Source: Thermoproteota archaeon (GTDB lineage: Archaea > Thermoproteota > Methanomethylicia > Methanomethylicales > Methanomethylicaceae). From it: 49,235 nucleotides of DNA. The notes under the pieces were generated by a model, which was given only the letters and a program-made list of their open reading frames with translations, searched no databases and was not told the DNA's origin. The stretch spans positions 1-49,235 of the forward strand of contig JASFYK010000001.1 of the NCBI GenBank assembly GCA_030055545.1, written 5' to 3'. Both the position numbers and the translations under genes were made by a program. Of this stretch, positions 6,691 to 48,283 are shown piece by piece; the first letter of the stretch is position 1, and the number at the start of each line of letters is the position of its first letter.

Positions 6691-8589
6691 GTGAGCATTG
6701 ACTCGATGTTCTCTTCGACCGCTAAGAAGTTCCACGATAAGGTCGCACTGAAATGGAAAGGCAAGGATTATACCTTTGGGGAGCTGGACTCGCTCTCCAC
6801 CAGGTTCGCCAAGGCACTTTCTGCCTTGGGTGTTGGGAAGGGGGACAGGGTATGCATATTCATGCAGAATTCCCCGGAGTTCGCGATCGCCCACTTTGGG
6901 ATACTAAAATGCGGCGGGGTCACGGTCCCTCTTAACGTAATGTACAGGACGCATGAGCTCAGGCACATGATAAATGACTCCGGAGCGGCCGCAGTTGTGA
7001 CCTCGGGGGCAAACCTGCAGTTCGTGCAGGAGGTGATGAAGGATCTGAAGTCGGTAAGAGCGGTCATCGTTGCATCCGAGATGGTCCCTGAAGGCGTCAG
7101 GTCTTTTTACAGGATGGTGGAGGACTTTGACGACACCCCGCTCCCCAGCGTGAACGGGCAGGAAGACCTTGCGGTGATCTGCTACACTTCCGGGACGACC
7201 GGGCTGTCTAAGGGGGCAATGCTCACTCATAGGAATTTCCTGTCAAACATAGGCACGCTTGCAGAGATCTGGGAGCTCAACGAAAATGACAAGGTGCTGA
7301 TGGCTCTTCCAATGTTCCACATACACGGGCTAGGGATAGTCGTACACGGGATGGCATACTGCGGCTACACCGTTGTCCTACACGAGAGGTTCGACGCAGC
7401 CAAGGTGCTGGAAGAGATCAGGCGGGAGAGGTGTACGGTCTTCATGGGAGTCCCGACGATGTACATCAAGCTCCTTGAGGAAAAAAGCACATCTCATGAT
7501 GTTTCCTCGGTCAGGCTGTGGACGGTTGGTTCTGCACCGATGCCGGTTGAGGCTTTCAACAAGTTCAGGGAGAAGTTTGGTGTCGAGATACTCGAGCGAT
7601 ATGGCATGACCGAGACTGCTCCTGTAATAACCTCAAACCCCTACAGGGGGCGCAGGAAGCCCGGGTCAGTCGGGCCCCCCATTCCAGGCGTGGAGATTGC
7701 GATACTAGACGACGACGGGAAGGCACTGCCGCCTGGCGAAGTCGGGGAGATCGCGGTCAGGGGTCCTAATGTGATGAGGGGATACTGGAACCGCCCAGTG
7801 GAAACCGAGGAGGTCTTCTCTGGGGGGTGGTTCCACACAGGGGATCTCGGCAAATTAGATGGGGACGGTTACCTGACGATCGTGGGCAGGAAGAAGGAGA
7901 TGATAATCTCTGGAGGTTTTAAGATCTTCCCGAGGGAGGTCGAGGAGGTCATACACCAGCACCCGAAAGTAAAGGAGGTTGCTGTCGTTGGTATACCCGA
8001 CCCAGTGAGAGGCGAGAATGTCAAGGCATTCGTAGTGATCAAGGAAGGGGAAAACGCATCCGTCGAGGAGATCGAGGAGCACTGCAGGAAGAACTTGGCA
8101 GCATTCAAGGTCCCGAGGATCTTCGAATTCGTTGAGGCGATACCTAGGACTGCTAGCGGCAAAGCATTAAACAGGATGCTTGCGAAGGTCAAGGTCAAAG
8201 ACCTGATGGAGAAGTCTGTGAAGAGCATCGACAGGAGAACTTCAGCCTACGAGGCAGGGAAGTACATGAAAGAGGCTAACGTGGGCAGCCTGATCGTAAC
8301 CGACGGGGAGATGCCGATCGGGATCGTAACCCTGCGCGATATACTCTACAAGGTAATCTCTATAGGCAGCCTTGGCAAGGACGTCTCACTCAGCAGCATA
8401 ATGTCCACCCCGCTGGTCACGGTTGATGCAGAGGAGGACATTGCGAAGGCAGCGGCGATAATGCGTCAGTGGGGCGTCTGGAGGCTGCCTGTGAAAGACG
8501 GCAACGGGCAGATCGTAGGGGTCCTGAGCGGGACGGACATATTCAGGGCATTTGCGGGAAGGAAGATGGACGTGCCTACGAGCTTTTAG
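6691..8589 (+). CDS. AMP-forming acyl-CoA synthetase (fatty-acid-CoA ligase family) fused to a C-terminal CBS pair
   Basis: 632 aa. AMP-binding signature YTSGTTGLSKGA (nt about 7187-7222) and a complete adenylate-forming core ending ...ASGKALNRML. An extra ~125 aa (nt about 8206-8589) carry two CBS-like repeats. Confidence 0.85.
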   Translation: MSIDSMFSSTAKKFHDKVALKWKGKDYTFGELDSLSTRFAKALSALGVGKGDRVCIFMQNSPEFAIAHFGILKCGGVTVPLNVMYRTHELRHMINDSGAAAVVTSGANLQFVQEVMKDLKSVRAVIVASEMVPEGVRSFYRMVEDFDDTPLPSVNGQEDLAVICYTSGTTGLSKGAMLTHRNFLSNIGTLAEIWELNENDKVLMALPMFHIHGLGIVVHGMAYCGYTVVLHERFDAAKVLEEIRRERCTVFMGVPTMYIKLLEEKSTSHDVSSVRLWTVGSAPMPVEAFNKFREKFGVEILERYGMTETAPVITSNPYRGRRKPGSVGPPIPGVEIAILDDDGKALPPGEVGEIAVRGPNVMRGYWNRPVETEEVFSGGWFHTGDLGKLDGDGYLTIVGRKKEMIISGGFKIFPREVEEVIHQHPKVKEVAVVGIPDPVRGENVKAFVVIKEGENASVEEIEEHCRKNLAAFKVPRIFEFVEAIPRTASGKALNRMLAKVKVKDLMEKSVKSIDRRTSAYEAGKYMKEANVGSLIVTDGEMPIGIVTLRDILYKVISIGSLGKDVSLSSIMSTPLVTVDAEEDIAKAAAIMRQWGVWRLPVKDGNGQIVGVLSGTDIFRAFAGRKMDVPTSF

Positions 8590-40997: not shown

Positions 40998-41144
40998 TCA
41001 GCGCGCCTTTATCTCCATTATGATTGGAGATCTAGACTTGTAGAGGATCCTGTGACCGCACACGGGGCACCTGATCCCTGGCAGACCCATGAGTTCGTTG
41101 CTGTCAATCGTCTTTCCGCATTTTTCACAGAGATAGGTTGCCAT
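40998..41144 (-). CDS. rpoP: DNA-directed RNA polymerase subunit P (Rpo12)
   Basis: Hand-translated 48 aa: MATYLCEKCGKTIDSNELMGLPGIRCPVCGHRILYKSRSPIIMEIKAR. This is the CxxC...CxxC zinc ribbon ending RILYK typical of RpoP/RPABC4. A TTTTAAA TATA-like box lies about 40 nt upstream. Missing from the ORF track (under 60 aa). Confidence 0.75.
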   Translation of the reverse strand: MATYLCEKCGKTIDSNELMGLPGIRCPVCGHRILYKSRSPIIMEIKAR

Positions 41145-41361
41145 ATCCAGATACCTAGGCAATAGAGAATGCTACATGTTTAAAAGTATTGCGTAAAGTT
41201 AAGCCATCAAACCGAAAAAACGTTTCAGAATGTAGATCTGGTAGTTTGTCACATAATAAGCGGCATCTACTTGAAGGGGGAAGGCAAGAGGCAAGTGAGC
41301 GGGAGCTTCCATACTTGCAGAGGCTTACCATCCTGAAGGCACCGGGTTAAAAATAAAAAAG

Positions 41362-43038
41362 ATGAAGCCAAATAGGTCAATACCGCCAGGGGTGATGATG
41401 ATCCTAACGATGAATTTCGCATACGTGAGGTTCAAGGACGGCATGAGTAGAGCACTATCTCCAGATCAGTACGATGTTATAGCTATACTCGAAGCATCAG
41501 ACTCCCTGAGGAAGAAGTGGAGGAGTGTGCTCAAGCTCTTCAGGGAGGAAAAGAAGAGGATAGACTTCATTTTCAGGATTTATTACCCAGTTTATCTCGT
41601 CAGGCTTGAGGGCAGAATTGTAGCGGTCGATGGGCTGGGGGTTCAGGAGAGCCACTTCAACGAAGATAGCCTTGCAGACGGAATGATACTGAGCTCAAAA
41701 ACAGTCTTCGAGCCAGTTTTCGGAACCGATTTGTGCAATTGGCTCGGGGAATGGCATGAGATGGCATCAGAAGCCGAAGAAATAAGGAACGGTTTCGCGC
41801 TCCCTCCCACGATTTCAAAGGAAGGTGCCAAGAAGGCAGCAACCGAGTTAATAAGGATCCATGATTTCAACTTGGAGACGGTCAAGAAGATCGAAGACAA
41901 AATTTCTGAGCTGAACGAAGAATACAATAAAGCCCTACTCGGGCTGGTCGAGGAACAGAAGGCGCTCCTTGAGAACTTCGACAAAAAAATTTCGTTGAAG
42001 AGCACTGAGATAGAGGGGCTTGAAACTTACAGCGAGATGAAGATGATCAGGGAGCTTAAGACAAACTTCAGCAAGAAGCTCGAATCGATAAAAAAACAGA
42101 AGGCTGAGGTCGAGCAGACTAGGCACAAGACTGCAGAGAGGATATCGGAGCTGGAAGGTGAGAAGGCAAAGCTGCTCTCGCTGAAGAATTCACTTTCCAG
42201 CAAAATAGCTTCTTTGAGCCTCAGGCTTGAGAGGCTCCGTGACGAGAAGCAGAGACTGAATTCGCAAGGGAACGACCCTAAGATGATCAGCGAGAACCTT
42301 ATCAATTCGGAGAAGATCAGAAGGGAAATCGACAATCTCCAGAGAGAGCTCGAAAGCTGCGTCTCAAAATTCAACCAGATCTCTGGCGAAATCAGTACGC
42401 TGACTGAAAGTTTGAACGGGCTTGACAAGCAGTTGGAGACTCTCAAAGAAAAGGAGAGATTACTGCCGTCAAAAGAGGAGGAGGAGGTAAACAAAGTCCG
42501 CTTGTGTTTTGCAGGAAGGCGCGAAAATCTCGTGAAAGAACTGATGGAGTTGACTGAAGAGAAGGAAAGAAGACTGACAGAAATAAAGACCAGAGAGAGG
42601 CAGGAAAGAGCAAAACACAACAACGAACTCCGAAGGCTGCAGTTCTTGCTCGCCAAGTCAAAAAATGACTTCCAGGCAGTGGAATCAATCATGCTACAAG
42701 ATGAGGGGGAGGCGAGGTGGGAACTGGAGATTTTGTACATACCGTTTTATGTTTACTCAATCGAGGGTGATTTCAGGATCCTTGAGCCCCAGATTCTCAT
42801 TGAAGAGGGAGGGAAGATAGCGAAGTCGGGAGGCACCTGCTTGGTGAGCGGGGGTCTCGAACACTTGCAGGGGAACTGGGATGCGCTGTCGCTGCTGCTC
42901 TTCAAAGCGAAAGACAGCTTCAACCTCCTATCCCTCCAGAACCGGAGGAGGATAATCTCGGCTGCAGAGTCACTCAGGTCTATGCGGGTCATAAATGACT
43001 TCCAGCTCTCCTACATCAGGGCGGTTGAGACGAAATGA
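41362..43038 (+). CDS. Long coiled-coil protein of unknown function with similar N- and C-terminal beta-modules
   Basis: 558 aa. About 280 central residues are E/K/L-rich heptad-like sequence (nt about 41855-42696). The N-terminal IFRIYYPVYLVRLEGR and C-terminal EILYIPFYVYSIEGDF motifs resemble each other. An A/T box directly abuts ATG 41362, so ATG 41395 is an alternative start. Confidence 0.7.
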   Translation: MKPNRSIPPGVMMILTMNFAYVRFKDGMSRALSPDQYDVIAILEASDSLRKKWRSVLKLFREEKKRIDFIFRIYYPVYLVRLEGRIVAVDGLGVQESHFNEDSLADGMILSSKTVFEPVFGTDLCNWLGEWHEMASEAEEIRNGFALPPTISKEGAKKAATELIRIHDFNLETVKKIEDKISELNEEYNKALLGLVEEQKALLENFDKKISLKSTEIEGLETYSEMKMIRELKTNFSKKLESIKKQKAEVEQTRHKTAERISELEGEKAKLLSLKNSLSSKIASLSLRLERLRDEKQRLNSQGNDPKMISENLINSEKIRREIDNLQRELESCVSKFNQISGEISTLTESLNGLDKQLETLKEKERLLPSKEEEEVNKVRLCFAGRRENLVKELMELTEEKERRLTEIKTRERQERAKHNNELRRLQFLLAKSKNDFQAVESIMLQDEGEARWELEILYIPFYVYSIEGDFRILEPQILIEEGGKIAKSGGTCLVSGGLEHLQGNWDALSLLLFKAKDSFNLLSLQNRRRIISAAESLRSMRVINDFQLSYIRAVETK

Positions 43039-44291
43039 GGATCCTATATGCAAGCCAGTCTTTCCTACCTAGCACTGGCGGGGTTTCATATTATCTCATG
43101 TGGCTCGGGAGAAAGTTGAAGGAAGCCAAACACGAAGTTGTATTCGTTAATATGAAGCCTCCTAAAGGAAAAGCCAAGGAAGAGATATCCGGGTTCAAAG
43201 TGTTCAGGGTTCCCGCCGAGGGGGAGTTTGACCAAGACACCCTGCGTGGCTACTCGAAGTTCAAAGAGCTCATTCTAAGGGTCTTCCACAACAGGGAGGT
43301 TCCGGTTGATATGCTCTATAATAAACACCTCTACGGTTACAACGAATACCTGAAGGTCAATGAATCGTTCCAGAGGGCTATTTCAGAAGCCGCAGATCGG
43401 GAGCATCCGGACATAGTCCATGTGCATGACTTCCAACTACTCCCCTGCCTGACCGGCCTCAAAAAAAATACTTGGCCCCTTGTCTTCACTTGGCATATAC
43501 CATTCACAGAAGAGGTGCACCCTGCCTGGAGGGAGGCAATGGTGGAGTACATGAAAGAAGGCTCGGCGTCGATATTTTCGACAAAGGGGTATGCGAGCGC
43601 AGCCATAAAGTCCGGAATTCCGTTCAATAAGGTTAGCGTCATACCTCCATTCATTGATGTGGAGCAGCCCAAAGCAAAGTTCAGGGAGAGATTCGGCATA
43701 AGGAATGACGAAAAGCTGATAATCTGCGTGGCAAGGATGGACAGATTCAAGGGACAAAGCACCCTCCTAGACGCTGCAGCTACGCTTGATCTCGATTACA
43801 GGCTCGTTTTCATCGGGAATGGCTCCTTCAGCAAAGACATCCTCAAGGTCAAGGACAAGGAAAGCTACGGCAAAGAACTAAAGGAGAAGGCAAAAAACAA
43901 TGTTTACTCGGGCAGGGTGATCTTCGCAGGCGCAGTCGACAGAGACCTGCTCATGGCTGCCTATAATGAATGTGACCTCGTCGTATTGCCGTCTGTGCAC
44001 GAAGGCTTCGGTCTAGCAATCACAGAGGGGATGGCATTTGGGAAGCCTGTGATTGGAACTGCTGTCGGCGGGATACCGTCGCAGATCTGGCCAGGAGTGA
44101 ATGGATACTTGGTCAAACCCAACGATCCTAGGTCACTCGCAGATGCGATTCGCCACATCCTGAAGAACGGCGAATTGGCTGAGGAAATGGGAAGGAACGG
44201 CAAGGCGATCTTTGAGAGATACTTTTCCTCAAGGCGAGGGGCTGAAGATCATATAGGACTTTATAATAGACTCCTCAAATTCGGGGGTTGA
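43035..44291 (+). CDS. GT4-family (GT-B fold) glycosyltransferase
   Basis: 418 aa. N-terminal LPSTGGVSYY and C-terminal EGFGLAITEGMAFGKPVI (E-x7-E) motif. ATGA overlap with the upstream gene. Confidence 0.85.
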   Translation: MRILYASQSFLPSTGGVSYYLMWLGRKLKEAKHEVVFVNMKPPKGKAKEEISGFKVFRVPAEGEFDQDTLRGYSKFKELILRVFHNREVPVDMLYNKHLYGYNEYLKVNESFQRAISEAADREHPDIVHVHDFQLLPCLTGLKKNTWPLVFTWHIPFTEEVHPAWREAMVEYMKEGSASIFSTKGYASAAIKSGIPFNKVSVIPPFIDVEQPKAKFRERFGIRNDEKLIICVARMDRFKGQSTLLDAAATLDLDYRLVFIGNGSFSKDILKVKDKESYGKELKEKAKNNVYSGRVIFAGAVDRDLLMAAYNECDLVVLPSVHEGFGLAITEGMAFGKPVIGTAVGGIPSQIWPGVNGYLVKPNDPRSLADAIRHILKNGELAEEMGRNGKAIFERYFSSRRGAEDHIGLYNRLLKFGG

Positions 44292-45571
44292 GGTGGCGAT
44301 TTTCTTTGAATGATAGGAGTGCTTTCAGCGGTTTCTACAAGAAGAGTGTCGATGAGAGGATAGAAATACTGAGGAAGAGTGCGGGTCTCGGGGAAGAGGA
44401 TCTCAAGAGGCTCAAAGATGGACTGCCAATCGAGCTTGCCAACATCATGGTCGAGAACGTAGTGGGGACGTTCCAGCTTCCGCTAGGAATCGCCACGAAC
44501 CTCAGGGTTAACGGCAAAGATTACCTCGTACCCATGGCAACTGAGGAGGCGTCTGTAATAGCGGCTGCGAGCCACGCAGCCAAGCTTGCCCTTCCGGAGG
44601 GGTTCAGGGCGACCAGCACAAGGCCAGTGGTCCGTGGACAGGTCCAGATAATCGGGCTTAGTGATCTTGCGTCACCCGCCCAGAGAATAATGTCAGCCAA
44701 GGAAGAACTGATTGAGGAGGCGAACAGGTTCGCAGGATCGTTACCCAAGATGGGTGGGGGGGTGATTGATCTCAAGGTCAAGGCATTTGAAGAGCCGAGG
44801 AGGATGCTCATCGCAGAATTTTATGTTGACTGCAGGGACGCGATGGGCGCAAACGCGGTGAACACTGTTGTAGAGGGGATCGCTCCAAGGCTAGAGGATC
44901 TCACCGGGGGGAGATGCCTTCTCAGGATCCTGTCAAACCTCGCTACCGAAAGGGTGTCCCGATCCAGCGTGGTTTTCAGGCGGGACGTTATTGGGGATGA
45001 GGTCGTAGATGGGATAATCGCTGCTTATGACTTTGCTTATGCCGATCCGTACCGTGCAGCAACGCACAACAAGGGGATTATGAATGGGATATCAGCGGTC
45101 ACCATAGCCACCGGAAATGACTCTAGGGCGGTAGAGGCAGGGGCGCATGCCTACGCTGCGCTCTCCGGGAGGTATCTCCCGTTATCCAAGTGGTGGAAGG
45201 ACGGGAAAGGGAACCTAGTGGGAGAGCTTGAGCTTCCGCTGGCACTAGGCATTGTCGGAGGCGCTACAAAGATCCACCCCGTGGCTCAGACCGTACTTAA
45301 GATAATAGGCGCTAAGAGCGCGAATGAACTAGCTGAAGTGATATGCTCGGTAGGGCTCGCCCAAAATTTCGCTGCCCTGAGGGCGCTAGTGAGCGAGGGC
45401 ATCCAGAGGGGGCACATGCGGCTCCATTCGAGGAATGTTGCGATCATGGCAGGAGCGGTGGGAGCGGAGATCGAGAGGGTTGCCAGCACGATGGTCGCTG
45501 AAGGCAATATCAGGGTTTCGAGGGCAAAGGAAATATTGGAGGGTTTGAGGGGGAGCTGCTCAGAGCAGTGA
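44288..45571 (+). CDS. hmgA: Hydroxymethylglutaryl-CoA reductase, class II type
   Basis: 427 aa. ENVVGTFQLPLGIA, PMATEEASVIAAAS, DAMGAN and GATKIHP motifs and an N-terminus (FSGFYKKSVDERIE) as in class II (Pseudomonas mevalonii/Archaeoglobus-type) enzymes. The TTG start overlaps the GT stop. Confidence 0.88.
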   Translation: MRWRFSLNDRSAFSGFYKKSVDERIEILRKSAGLGEEDLKRLKDGLPIELANIMVENVVGTFQLPLGIATNLRVNGKDYLVPMATEEASVIAAASHAAKLALPEGFRATSTRPVVRGQVQIIGLSDLASPAQRIMSAKEELIEEANRFAGSLPKMGGGVIDLKVKAFEEPRRMLIAEFYVDCRDAMGANAVNTVVEGIAPRLEDLTGGRCLLRILSNLATERVSRSSVVFRRDVIGDEVVDGIIAAYDFAYADPYRAATHNKGIMNGISAVTIATGNDSRAVEAGAHAYAALSGRYLPLSKWWKDGKGNLVGELELPLALGIVGGATKIHPVAQTVLKIIGAKSANELAEVICSVGLAQNFAALRALVSEGIQRGHMRLHSRNVAIMAGAVGAEIERVASTMVAEGNIRVSRAKEILEGLRGSCSEQ

Positions 45572-46393: not shown

Positions 46394-46684
46394 TTGATAA
46401 CCATGGCAAAAGATGGAGAAGGACAGCAGGAGAAAGCGCCTGGAAACGGGGAAGAGAAGCAATACTACATGCCGATCCCAGCGGGGACGCCATACTCTGT
46501 TATTGCAGAAGCCGTCAACAGGTTTGGGGTCGAGCTGACGGAAAAAGAAGTGATCGTTCCTGGGATAGGGGAGAACGAGACAGCACCACTCACATGGGTG
46601 CTAGTCGGAAGCAGAGAGAGCCTTGAGAAAGCCCACGAATTCATTGTTAGAAAAATGACGGAGATGCTGGAGAGGTTTAGGTAG
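46394..46684 (+). CDS. Hypothetical small protein
   Basis: 96 aa, 14 nt downstream of the HD gene. Charged/low-complexity N-terminus followed by a plausible alpha/beta core. No motif recognised. Confidence 0.4.
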   Translation: MITMAKDGEGQQEKAPGNGEEKQYYMPIPAGTPYSVIAEAVNRFGVELTEKEVIVPGIGENETAPLTWVLVGSRESLEKAHEFIVRKMTEMLERFR

Positions 46685-47192
46685 GCGCTTCGCCGCCTAG
46701 GTGAGCGCTCATACGCTTGTCCTCTTCTAGCATCTCGCTCTGGAGGTCTTTCACGATCTTCGCGATTGCGCTCAGGAAGATCTGCTCTACTGCTCTACCG
46801 AGCGAGGCCCCGAGCTCGTCGCAGAGATCCGATACCTTCTCGGAATTCCTGTCCAAGAATGAGTAAAAGGACTCTGCCACGACCTGGTATAGGTCTTCTT
46901 CCAACTCGGAGTCGCTTCCCTCACCGATCCCGATCGAGAACTCGAGCGCATAAAGGTCAGGCCCTTTCCCTTTTCCTGGGATCCGCCTGACCAATCTTGC
47001 GTTTACCAATTTATCCAGCCGGTCTGATGCATCCTTCTTGCTGATCAGGAGTACCTCCGACATCCGATCCATCGTCAGCGGACCCTTCTGAAGGGACAGG
47101 AGGGCTTCACGCGACTTGTCATCAAGTAGGGCGCTGCAGACCTCTGCAAGTTTTTCGTCAGGAACCACTAGGCATGCCATTGTTATCACCAA
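46677..47192 (-). CDS. Putative winged-helix DNA-binding protein, last gene of the mcrD-like/mcrC/mmp5 operon
   Basis: About 167-171 aa (ATG 47180 or TTG 47192). wHTH-like LSLQKGPLTMDRMSEVLLISKKDASDRLDKLVNARLVRR plus a helical C-terminal half. The start overlaps the mmp5 3' end by about 23 nt. Confidence 0.55.
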   Translation of the reverse strand: MVITMACLVVPDEKLAEVCSALLDDKSREALLSLQKGPLTMDRMSEVLLISKKDASDRLDKLVNARLVRRIPGKGKGPDLYALEFSIGIGEGSDSELEEDLYQVVAESFYSFLDRNSEKVSDLCDELGASLGRAVEQIFLSAIAKIVKDLQSEMLEEDKRMSAHLGGEAPT

Positions 47193-47622
47193 GAGACTTG
47201 AGGAATGACCTTATCTTTGAGACCATTATCCTAGCATCGTCCTCTGTGCGCGGGTAAGGGACCACTACAACCGGAATTTCCCTACGCTTTAGTATGTATC
47301 GGATGAATTCGTTAGTTCTGCCACAGCTGGCGCACCCGAAAAGGGCCTCTGGATCCTCTACCACGATTGCTGCGTCTGCCTCTTCTATGAGCGGGCCGAT
47401 CAGTGCCAGGCGGCCCCTCACACCGGACGGGACCTCTATCGCAGCGTACTTCAACCCCCTCCTGGGGAACTCTGGGGTGATGTTCATCGGCGGAGAGTCT
47501 ATCTCCGGCTTCGAGAGGTTCTTCGCGACCTCCTCGCCGAGACCGAGCGGCGTATGCCCCTCACGCGTGACGAGGTCGTACAGGATTAGACTGTTGGGCG
47601 GAAATATGAACACTTTAGCCAA
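47158..47622 (-). CDS. Methanogenesis marker protein 5 (Mmp5)
   Basis: 154 aa. FIFPPNSLILYDLV, GLKYAAIEVPSGVRGR and FGCASCGRTNE segments match my recollection of marker-5 proteins. GGAGG lies 9 nt before the TTG start. 8-nt overlap with mcrC. Confidence 0.7.
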   Translation of the reverse strand: MAKVFIFPPNSLILYDLVTREGHTPLGLGEEVAKNLSKPEIDSPPMNITPEFPRRGLKYAAIEVPSGVRGRLALIGPLIEEADAAIVVEDPEALFGCASCGRTNEFIRYILKRREIPVVVVPYPRTEDDARIMVSKIRSFLKSLGDNNGMPSGS

Positions 47623-48283
47623 TATTATTCCTCCCGAGTATCACTTCTCTGCGGTCTATCTTGCTCAACCAGAACTTCACTTTTATCACTATCTCATTCA
47701 GCTTGTCCCTTGGGCAGCTGACTCCCCGGACGACGCCTGTGACTAGGTCCACTATCACCCCGGCGCATTCGACCTTGCCAGGAGGCGGCCGAACCAGCCT
47801 AGTGATTATCCCGACCTTCGCAAAGTCCTCATAGTCCACAGGGGCCTCGCAGACAATTATCGCAGGTATGTCGACATACCTCAGGAACGACTTTGCTTTG
47901 TGAACCACATGACCGCTGATCCCGCCCAAGTGTATGAGTGCAAGCTTGAAACGCCTTATCTGGAATACCTCTTTTTCGTTCATGCCAGCCATCGATCCGC
48001 CAGGCGCGCCGCCATACGGCGAGTCGGGAGGGACGCCGGCCCCGGACTCGAGAACAAGTACGCTCGTCCGTATCCCCTGCTCCCTGAGGCCATATGTGAT
48101 CTCGCAGATCGGCTTGGTTATGTGTCGCTTCGAAGGTGACATCGCAATTGCGACTACCTCGAAGCTCTCGGATTCTGAAATTGTCCCCCGCTGGGCCAGA
48201 CCGCCGCCCTCTCCGATGCCCATCGACTCCCTGCAGTCGACAATCTGCACATCCCTGCCAATCGAATCCTGCAATCGGTTCAC
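47615..48283 (-). CDS. mcrC: Methyl-coenzyme M reductase operon protein C
   Basis: 222 aa. QIVDCRESMGIGEGGGLAQRGT and VAIAMSPSKRHITKPICEITYGLREQGI are hallmark McrC segments. GTGA overlap with the upstream gene. Confidence 0.85.
   Translation of the reverse strand: MNRLQDSIGRDVQIVDCRESMGIGEGGGLAQRGTISESESFEVVAIAMSPSKRHITKPICEITYGLREQGIRTSVLVLESGAGVPPDSPYGGAPGGSMAGMNEKEVFQIRRFKLALIHLGGISGHVVHKAKSFLRYVDIPAIIVCEAPVDYEDFAKVGIITRLVRPPPGKVECAGVIVDLVTGVVRGVSCPRDKLNEIVIKVKFWLSKIDRREVILGRNNIG

Follow-up and report, generated by a model that had tools for sequence, protein, structure and literature searches.

An orphan coiled-coil protein of the Methanomethylicia with a predicted hairpin fold, encoded in overlap with a GT4 glycosyltransferase

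The locus and its reading frame

The window, as we call the whole 49,235-nucleotide (49-kb) stretch of archaeal DNA analysed here, contains on its forward strand an uninterrupted open frame of 558 codons plus stop at positions 41362–43038, which encodes a coiled-coil protein. A retaining, GT-B-type glycosyltransferase of family GT4 (43035–44291) starts over the stop codon of this frame at an ATGA junction (43035–43038), and its own stop is overlapped by 4 nt by the start of an HMG-CoA reductase gene (44288–45571). All features described below lie on the same strand, and residues are numbered from position 41362.

The initial annotation had read the frame as a 558-aa protein starting at 41362. 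The open frame stands, but the start is likelier at 41395 or 41398, where most homologues begin. The homologues are 542–549 aa long, and their alignment starts at this point. Moreover, the ATG at 41362 is absent from L006 and from L001/L009, and a conserved TATA-like box, GGTTAAAAATAAAAAAG, lies directly against it, while a GGGGTGA Shine–Dalgarno-like element lies immediately 5′ of the probable start. Comparison of the sequences thus indicates that the gene probably begins at 41395/41398, leaving the first 11–12 codons of the longer frame probably untranslated and giving a probable coding sequence of 41398–43038 (546 aa, or 547 aa if counted from 41395). The A/T-rich TATA-like box TTAAAAATAAAAAA (41347–41360) is a candidate promoter of the coiled-coil/GT4 operon. 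The GGTTAAAAATAAAAAAG box is kept 5′ of the gene in all loci of the Methanosuratincola clade (the window, L003–L008 and L001/L009), and its location, some 40 nt ahead of the start codon shared by the homologues, suggests that it acts as the promoter.

Predicted arm and heads

The AF2 model calculated with a 22-sequence alignment has a pLDDT of 87 and contains two long helices, residues 153–301 and 306–441, with heads at pLDDT 80–93; an earlier AF2 model shows this hairpin too. According to these models, a single chain would double back into a coiled coil of two antiparallel helices, with a length of about 20 nm and both termini at its base, and the N- and C-terminal domains would jointly build a composite α/β head, to which each contributes one YxPxY β-hairpin. 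The ascending helix (residues 153–301; 41818–42264) is predicted mostly at pLDDT above 85 and shows heptad periodicity, and the descending helix (residues 306–441; 42277–42684) is likewise an AF2 assignment with pLDDT mostly above 85. Between them lies the hairpin apex, a Gly-rich loop of residues 302–305 (QGND; 42265–42276), at which the helix is broken in both models and which is the indel hot spot of the alignment. The central part comprises 17% Glu, 15% Leu, 12% Lys and 9% Ser with heptad periodicity, and 117 of the 291 residues of the antiparallel arm are charged. The initial annotation had described roughly residues 165–445 as one continuous heptad-like stretch rich in these four residues; its composition and heptads are confirmed, but the continuity is not, as two helices are split at 302–305. 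The further suggestion of a long antiparallel coil pairing both ends, SMC/Rad50-like without ATPase heads, is borne out in the AF2 prediction.

Two conserved islands are located in the arm. The first (residues 203–225, DKKISLKSTEIEGLETYSE; 41968–42036) has low column entropy amid variable coil, with K213 and E218 invariant and E216 and E225 nearly so. The second (residues 363–412, EKERLLPSKE...FAGRRENLVKEL...EEKER; 42448–42597) is a conserved block in which R387 and L394 are invariant and P369 nearly invariant; at 1.03 bits, its residues 363–372 have the lowest entropy of the whole protein. From the antiparallel register of the helices, we infer that the two islands face each other. The maximum of the 19-residue Kyte–Doolittle profile is 1.05, and the protein therefore has no TM segment; it is a cytoplasmic protein of 546–547 aa.

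The N-terminal head (residues 13–152; 41398–41817) is predicted as mainly β with three helices, at pLDDT of about 80–93, and terminates in a conserved EEIxDGFAxPP motif; F19, L32, D38, E62, Y74, P76, D90 and G144 are invariant. The C-terminal head (residues 442–558; 42685–43035) is predicted as a β-hairpin and short strands that lead into a helical bundle, with P461, Y463, P476, F520, R530 and L538 invariant and W506, N527, R528 and Q548 nearly invariant. Each head carries a similar hairpin: a YYPxYLV...VDG motif in the N-terminal one (residues 67–90; 41560–41631), with strands 67–82 and 85–90 in both AF2 models, and a LYIPFYLxS...IEPP motif in the C-terminal one (residues 455–474; 42724–42783), with predicted strands 455–467 and 470–474. 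The motifs themselves map to residues 72–89 (41575–41628) and 456–474 (42727–42783). Among the 63,215 residues of the long ORFs in the window and six loci, the pattern Y.P.[YF][LVIMF] occurs 13 times, and ten of these occurrences come from five family members, in each of which they form the motif pair; both YxPxY motifs are kept in all members, down to 24% identity.

The repeated hairpin motif had thus been correctly noted at both ends, close to where we find it: it is conserved and predicted to form β-hairpins. The accompanying idea that the two ends are equivalent modules fails, since one is predicted as mainly β with three helices and the other as a hairpin and strands with a helical bundle. 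A profile–profile self-comparison bears this out. With a shallow alignment, hhalign did not pair the motifs of the N- and C-terminal ends (probability 1.6%); with a diverse alignment the pairing was exact but spanned just 17 columns (P = 0.0017, probability 15%). The similarity holds for the 17-residue hairpin motif, and not for the remainder of the domains.

Comparison with SMC-type proteins and extent of the family

The predicted model resembles SMC, Rad50, RecN and MukB in having an intramolecular antiparallel coil that would bring the terminal globular parts together at one end. Foldseek searches of PDB and BFVD with both full-length models gave Rad50, SMC, MukB, JetC, LmuB and phage gp46-like proteins as top matches, and these were coil-dominated, with TM values of 0.1–0.3. 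The arm measures about 140 residues per strand, and the Rad50/SMC arms are ranked first. With the improved model, alignments extended over 460–690 columns, and the E-value to Rad50 (5.5e-5 against 6.1e-5) showed no gain once the heads were well modelled.

These matches raise the question of whether the protein is a degenerate, ATPase-dead descendant of SMC, Rad50 or RecN whose heads lost the P-loop, Walker B and signature motif and which took on a new use as a passive clamp or tether. The modelled layout of N-terminal half-head, antiparallel coil and C-terminal half-head would be shared, the top Foldseek matches are of Rad50/SMC type, and the N terminus (hxhxNF, FKDG, DVIAIL, IDFIF) looks SMC-like by eye, which we treat as a lead only. 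The heads argue otherwise. A regular-expression scan for Walker A (GxxxxGK[ST]) gave no matches, and the motif is also absent from the family alignments; neither Walker B (hhhhDE), LSGGQ/E, HExxH nor CxxC was found in the protein, and the SGG of the VSGGLE sequence in Methanosuratincola is not kept in divergent members. These scans and the Kyte–Doolittle profile agree with the initial annotation, which had seen neither a catalytic nor a TM signature. The apex has neither a hinge domain nor a CxxC zinc hook, but a 4-residue Gly-rich loop instead. In hmmsearch --max runs, HMMs of the N- and C-terminal heads matched SbcC, RecN, RecF, MukB and three Rad50-like proteins in coil regions only, at no more than 5 bits. 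Alignment of the head profiles by hhalign with reference heads, comprising only seven sequences, gave P values of 0.5–0.8, equal to the cross-wise controls; a metagenome scan for a deeper Rad50 reference profile yielded only three partial loci. The head profile retrieved no SMC or Rad50 chain among the PDB sequences at E ≤ 10, and a Pfam scan of 16 members gave no match to SMC_N or AAA_23. In addition, the predicted C-terminal head has no alternating β–α core.

The protein therefore differs from the SMC superfamily in lacking Walker A, Walker B, the signature motif, the hinge and the zinc hook, in heads (140 and about 115 aa) without sequence or profile similarity, and in having a glycosyltransferase rather than a nuclease or kleisin as its genomic partner. 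Given the absence of signal in the profile tests, the low TM values and the unimproved Rad50 E-value, we consider descent from an SMC-type ATPase very unlikely; a degenerate SMC/Rad50 head was rejected on the hmmsearch --max and hhalign results against these seven reference proteins.

Searched exhaustively with HMMER, 1.84 billion representatives yielded about ten full-length clusters of the coiled-coil family. Among the matches listed, true members scored 105–961 bits, and the next matches, at no more than 58 bits, were coiled-coil noise. Every named member belongs to the Methanomethylicia (Verstraetearchaeota), and so do all seven GTDB species that carry the gene. Full-length ORFs are kept across more than 20 lineages at 24–98% identity, and the family occurs in LWZ-6 and LCB70, the two Methanosuratincola strains in culture. 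An indexed search with a diverse alignment returned close relatives only, coil words having filled its candidate list. By sequence, the protein is thus a small orphan family with a sharp boundary, confined to the Methanomethylicia, which are methane-producing archaea.

Scans of the full protein against Pfam, NCBIfam, PADLOC, PHROGs and PDB sequences gave only coil-composition matches far under the cut-offs (SMC coil, LmuB, JetC and tape measure), and for the heads there was no match at all in Pfam, in NCBIfam or among PDB sequences, which bears out the earlier statement that no known family could be assigned. A literature search on Methanosuratincola coiled-coil proteins and Verstraetearchaeota trehalose found nothing about this gene. 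In Methanomethylicia genomes the gene is currently annotated as hypothetical or, wrongly, as PspA or SbcC: database labels on homologues include “PspA/IM30/ESCRT-III” (JGI, P0004) and, on a fragment, “SbcC” (P0021). PspA/IM30/ESCRT-III proteins and SbcC are likewise helical-hairpin, coiled-coil-rich proteins. The arms of the present protein, however, are more than twice the length of the PspA hairpin, and PspA has no such α/β heads. The PspA_IM30, Snf7 and SMC_N profiles gave no Pfam/NCBIfam match even at E ≤ 1, and we rejected both labels as artefacts of coiled-coil composition.

Linkage to GT4 and possible function

The 4-nt [A/T]TGA overlap between the coiled-coil stop and the GT4 start, a signature of translational coupling, is present in all ten GT4-linked loci, across coiled-coil identities of 27–100%, although the upstream context varies among them. 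In most lineages the order is ArsR-type HTH, coiled-coil gene, GT4 and HAD-IIB phosphatase. The HAD-IIB gene lies directly 3′ of GT4 in L010 and L012–L018, and in relatives it separates GT4 from HMG-CoA reductase; the window, L001 and L003 lack it, and no homologue occurs elsewhere within the 49 kb. The HAD genes encode DxDxT and GDxxND motifs and match best to the SPP subfamily of HAD-IIB and to archaeal phosphoglycolate phosphatase. An MscS gene lies divergently upstream in three loci (L010, L017 and L018), and a TreT-like glycosyltransferase (452–456 bits to NF041139) adjoins in L012 and L016. The HAD, HTH and MscS genes of this cluster are all missing from the window. The GT4 overlap and the MscS/HTH/HAD context had gone unnoticed in the initial annotation; they are the sole functional evidence on the coiled-coil protein.

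The GT4 protein matches Pfam Glycos_transf_1 at 3e-41, with Glyco_transf_20 and TreT_GT1 at its N-terminal domain. It resembles TreT, sucrose-phosphate synthase and BshA, and its best PDB sequence matches are 6kih (4e-23), BshA and TreT (7e-18, over residues 106–412). The EX7E motif (EGFGLAITE) is conserved. By sequence comparison, its best matches are small-molecule sugar synthases, and its motif marks it as catalytically intact. A weak Pfam match to GT4-conflict was also recorded; we rejected a reading as a defence system, PADLOC having returned nothing for GT4 and SMC-like coil matches only for the coiled-coil protein.

We considered whether the coiled-coil protein could be the acceptor substrate of GT4, in a dedicated protein O-glycosylation pair like SdgA/SdgB or GtfA/B. 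Such a pair would account for the tight gene coupling; the Methanosuratincola coil is Ser-rich (9%), and GT4 does match SdgA/SdgB models, weakly. However, the Ser richness is not kept in divergent members, the stronger GT4 matches are the sugar synthases, and the neighbouring HAD sugar-phosphatase and MscS genes suggest an intermediate that is a soluble sugar phosphate, making this arrangement highly improbable.

Two systems from Thermoproteota offer analogies. In S. acidocaldarius, the GT4-type trehalose-6-phosphate synthase Saci_1249 and the HAD phosphatase Saci_0016 are required for salt tolerance, and Saci_1249 is active alone, as a homodimer (PMC7688234). By analogy, this member of the TACK superphylum may parallel the cluster found in relatives of the window, in that a GT4 distantly similar to TreT is functionally paired with an HAD phosphatase; a coiled-coil protein is not mentioned with Saci_1249 (PMC7688234). 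T. tenax has an msc-gt-tpsp operon in which GT activates the synthase through complex formation (PMC3634074). This, too, is a Thermoproteota operon that combines a mechanosensitive channel, GT4 and sugar-phosphate synthase/phosphatase functions, and the analogy would extend to a non-obvious accessory subunit that controls the synthase by complex formation. In contrast to T. tenax, the coiled-coil/GT4 cluster has neither a GT20 TPS domain nor a TPS–TPP fusion, its phosphatase is a separate HAD-IIB gene that is missing from the window, and its MscS gene is divergent and not co-transcribed; the 546-aa coiled-coil protein has no T. tenax counterpart. Our literature search found no coiled-coil subunit of a GT4 sugar synthase. 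To our knowledge, regulation by complex formation is so far known only in the T. tenax GT–TPSP pair and the yeast trehalose synthase complex.

Since the linked loci with the GT4 overlap belong to a likely salt-stress cluster, the coiled-coil protein is most plausibly the non-catalytic partner of GT4, and we tentatively favour, as a possibility, that it scaffolds or regulates a compatible-solute synthase. Among classes of function, the structural or scaffolding role initially proposed remains the most reasonable. The protein would be made in step with GT4 and bind it as a non-catalytic subunit, through the head or the conserved mid-arm patch. It would scaffold or regulate a two-step pathway of sugar-phosphate synthase and phosphatase, or offer it a platform for oligomerisation; the product of that pathway may be a trehalose-like compatible solute made under osmotic stress. 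The genus of the window would have lost HAD, HTH and MscS from the locus and kept the coiled-coil/GT4 pair, which for that reason may be the functional core. What the adjacent genes and overlapping codons show is co-expression rather than binding, and the position of GT4 beside HMG-CoA reductase may instead point to a lipid or envelope role.

Where the two were compared, the coiled-coil protein shares 27–30% identity and GT4 57–62%, so that the former evolves about twice as fast. Such a rate would fit a structural protein under loose constraint, and it bears on the alternative that the protein is an autonomous structural or cytoskeletal coil (an envelope strut, a filament former or part of a cell–cell bridge) merely co-transcribed with GT4 and HMG-CoA reductase. 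The predicted shape, a hairpin that is long and rigid and bears a small head, is typical of structural proteins. A second, solo paralogue in GCA_038801785.1 (L011) has no glycosyltransferase nearby, so the family can act without an adjacent GT4. Furthermore, synteny of the surrounding order GlyRS, agmatinase ... HMG-CoA reductase, HD and mcr-associated genes extends broadly through the class, and the coiled-coil/GT4 adjacency could therefore be partly inherited. Against this, the exact 4-nt overlap persists in ten of ten loci despite reshuffling of the genes on the coiled-coil side (RpoP, HTH, MscS and ACS) and, beyond GT4, a HAD gene that is present or absent, and the islands of conserved polar residues in arm and heads suggest binding of a specific partner. 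We regard the autonomous coil as somewhat unlikely; if the protein were only a lineage-specific structural coil, its interest would be local and concern the annotation of Methanomethylicia genomes.

Should the protein instead be a GT4 subunit, it would represent a new type of accessory component for archaeal compatible-solute synthesis and a use of an SMC-like hairpin architecture without any ATPase. A more specific version of this partner role, which we think improbable, is that of a dedicated osmosensor subunit for compatible-solute synthesis in the Methanomethylicia: the SMC-shaped, ATPase-less hairpin would respond through its highly charged arm to cytoplasmic ionic strength or temperature and, by way of its composite head or of the patch conserved in mid-arm, switch GT4 on at osmotic upshift. 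M. petrocarbonis LWZ-6 carries the coiled-coil gene (L005) and grows at 0–60 g/l NaCl (PMC12244365); with cultured strains that include one of this salt tolerance, the partner hypothesis is directly testable.

A class-restricted orphan family

The 558-codon reading frame at 41362–43038 (+) encodes a coiled-coil protein whose E/K/L/S-rich middle shows heptad periodicity. A motif scan of the sequence detected neither Walker A/B nor signature, HExxH or CxxC motifs, and its hydrophobic stretches are too short to span a membrane. These features agree with the initial annotation. The reading frame it described is real, but its start at 41362 is doubtful: the majority of homologues start 11–12 codons downstream, this ATG is absent from two related lineages (loci L006, and L001/L009), and a TATA-like box kept across the genus, GGTTAAAAATAAAAAAG, immediately adjoins it. 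Based on these comparisons, the true start is most likely 41395/41398, giving a protein of 546–547 aa.

The block AAATAGGTCAATACC (41369–41385, +), located after the TATA-like box and before the start codon, is nearly invariant across Methanosuratincola species (the window's own locus and L003–L008) and partially kept in L001/L009. Candidate roles are an initiator, a 5'-UTR element or a regulator-binding site standing in for a lost upstream HTH gene. Antisense to the coiled-coil region are a 237-aa Ser/Leu-rich ORF (42027–42740, −) and several shorter ones within 41643–42992, which look like shadow ORFs arising from sense-strand E/K/L codon bias, not genes.

Searches of Pfam, NCBIfam, PADLOC, PHROGs and PDB sequences returned only coiled-coil composition matches, far under family cut-offs, so the protein is still without a family placement. 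The labels "phage shock protein" and "SbcCD ATPase subunit" on two members are composition artefacts. An exhaustive HMMER search of 1.84 billion representatives with the family profile recovered about 10 full-length clusters (527–548 aa) and fragments; the true members listed ahead of the gap score 105–961 bits, followed by an abrupt drop to generic coiled-coil matches at ≤58 bits. All source-named members come from Methanomethylicia/Verstraetearchaeota, and a phyletic survey of one genome per GTDB species placed the family in seven species, all Methanomethylicia; the cultured strains LWZ-6 and LCB70 are both carriers. The window derives from Candidatus Methanosuratincola, its closest homologue is 98% identical, and archaeal genes (GlyRS, agmatinase, RpoP, HMG-CoA reductase) surround it. 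Judged from these searches, the family is an orphan restricted to one class, and the coiled-coil protein is well supported as a real and conserved member of it.

Predicted architecture and relation to SMC/Rad50

With a shallow first alignment, AlphaFold returned a confident helical hairpin with disordered ends; with a 22-sequence alignment reaching down to 24% identity, mean pLDDT was 87, and 80–93 at the ends. In this model, the N-terminal globular domain, or N head (residues 13–152, numbered from ATG 41362), comprises three short strands, two helices, two long hairpins (67–82/85–90 and 97–105/109–117), a helix and a strand. The first arm helix (153–301) leads through a four-residue loop (302–305), coinciding with a Gly-rich indel hot spot of the alignment, into the second (306–441), and the C head (442–558) consists of a long hairpin (455–467/470–474), two short strands and a helical bundle. 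The arms measure about 140 residues each, or about 20 nm by our own arithmetic at 0.15 nm per residue. Such a headed coiled-coil hairpin is well supported as the predicted shape. Conservation clusters in both heads and in two arm islands, 203–225 (EIEGLETYSE) and 363–412 (EKERLLPSKE...FAGRRENLVKEL), which, given the antiparallel register, should face one another roughly one third of the arm's length above the heads.

A motif is repeated in the two heads, as initially noted. The N motif (residues 72–89, nt 41575–41628; consensus YKxYYPIYLV...VDG) and the C motif (residues 456–474, nt 42727–42783; consensus LYIPFYLxS...IEPP) are retained in all members, and in the model each supplies the opening strand and the turn of its own long beta-hairpin. 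The core pattern is scarce, with 13 occurrences in 63,215 residues of background ORFs, ten of them the family's own pairs. A profile–profile comparison of the N and C ends from the diverse alignment paired exactly these motifs (P=0.0017). The repeat is real and constrained, but this pairing spans only 17 columns at 15% probability, and the shallow alignment yielded no match between the ends; the initial proposal that they form equivalent modules is not supported, and neither is domain duplication.

The initial description of an SMC/Rad50-like coil lacking ATPase heads fairly captures the predicted shape, which has the same overall architecture. The top-ranked Foldseek matches were Rad50, SMC, MukB, JetC, LmuB and phage gp46-like proteins; their TM scores were 0.1–0.3, and well-modeled heads brought no gain in the E-value to Rad50, which indicates that the coil drives these matches. 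An SMC-like N-terminal pattern seen by eye had no profile signal in the heads. In an unfiltered search of E. coli K-12 SbcC, RecN, RecF and MukB and three Rad50-like proteins (one of which, P0112, was verified as Rad50 against the PDB), head HMMs matched coil regions only, at ≤5 bits, and head profiles compared by hhalign with alignments of the reference heads scored P=0.5–0.8, no better than cross-wise controls. Since the heads show no profile signal and the protein lacks Walker A/B, signature motif, hinge and zinc hook, SMC/Rad50 membership fails at the level of sequence, and a degenerate SMC-like protein is decidedly improbable despite the shared architecture.

Genomic context and a putative osmolyte module

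Genomic context is the sole functional evidence for the coiled-coil protein. Its stop codon overlaps, within ATGA, the start of the downstream glycosyltransferase gene GT4 (43035..44291, +), and our survey of conserved neighbors found an [A/T]TGA overlap in 10/10 GT4-linked loci examined, across coiled-coil identities of 27–100%. Co-translation with this sugar synthase is well supported.

In the window's clade, RpoP lies upstream of the coiled-coil gene and HMG-CoA reductase (HMGR) directly 3' of GT4, its start overlapping the GT4 stop by 4 nt (44288–44291). Other lineages carry an ArsR-type HTH gene before the coiled-coil gene (overlapping in L017) and an HAD-IIB phosphatase gene after GT4; this 225–234-aa gene occupies the same position, the GT4–HMGR gap, in L010 and L012–L018. 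In three loci, the upstream neighbor is a divergent MscS channel gene. HAD, HTH and MscS genes are absent from the locus in the window's genus, with no homologue in the 49 kb. Gene order suggests a clean loss or relocation of the phosphatase in the Methanosuratincola clade, after which the coiled-coil, GT4 and HMGR genes remained as three translationally coupled neighbors. TreT-like trehalose synthase genes (452–456 bits to NF041139) adjoin in two lineages, directly upstream of the coiled-coil operon (L012, 4613–5902, +; L016, 5678–6889, −, and 6886–7746, −); the window has no TreT orthologue. In L016, it forms a pair with a CBS-domain protein.

GT4 has an intact EX7E catalytic motif and, among PDB sequences, is nearest to small-molecule sugar synthases: first 6kih, a sucrose-phosphate synthase from a cyanobacterium, then BshA and TreT. 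That the coiled-coil protein is instead a glycosylation substrate of GT4 is highly improbable. The HADs are nearest to sucrose-phosphate-phosphatase subfamily and archaeal phosphoglycolate phosphatase models, just under cut-offs. The gene set resembles a pathway that would make a compatible solute in two steps, synthase then phosphatase, beside a mechanosensitive channel. Thermoproteota offer precedents: in S. acidocaldarius, a GT4-type trehalose-6-P synthase and an HAD phosphatase are needed for salt tolerance (PMC7688234), and in T. tenax the synthase of the msc-gt-tpsp operon becomes active through complex formation with an accessory GT (PMC3634074). M. petrocarbonis LWZ-6 grows at 0 to 60 g/l NaCl (PMC12244365).

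We tentatively favor, at somewhat less than even chances, a role for the coiled-coil protein as a non-catalytic partner of the GT4 synthase, which would act as scaffold or regulator in an osmolyte module. The reading in which a charged antiparallel arm gates the synthase in response to ionic strength is improbable, and a new mechanism is not demonstrated. One Methanomethylicia genome, GCA_038801785.1, encodes two paralogues 34% identical to each other (L011, 8001–9629, and L016, 8001–9611, both on contig JAULTD010000004.1), one GT4-linked and the other a solo copy with no GT nearby, flanked by B12-radical-SAM and sodium:solute symporter genes. An autonomous structural protein is a doubtful reading that keeps an appreciable share of the probability; the remainder falls to something else. 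The family is genuine and uncharacterized, and the context-based partner hypothesis is testable in cultivable organisms.

Regarding the surroundings, a small zinc-ribbon ORF (40998–41162, −) matches RpoP/Rpo12 (PF03604, 1.2e-7); this 54-aa ORF probably begins at an internal Met, as homologues are called as 48 aa, and RpoP lies between agmatinase and the coiled-coil gene in some lineages only. Downstream of an HD-domain gene is a conserved methanogenesis-associated block (46677–48283, −), with equivalents in L001, L003 and L012–L018 that contain MCR_C-like, MCR_D, DUF2112, DUF2102/DUF2113 and DUF8179 genes; this places the coiled-coil locus within core genome of broad synteny rather than on a mobile element.
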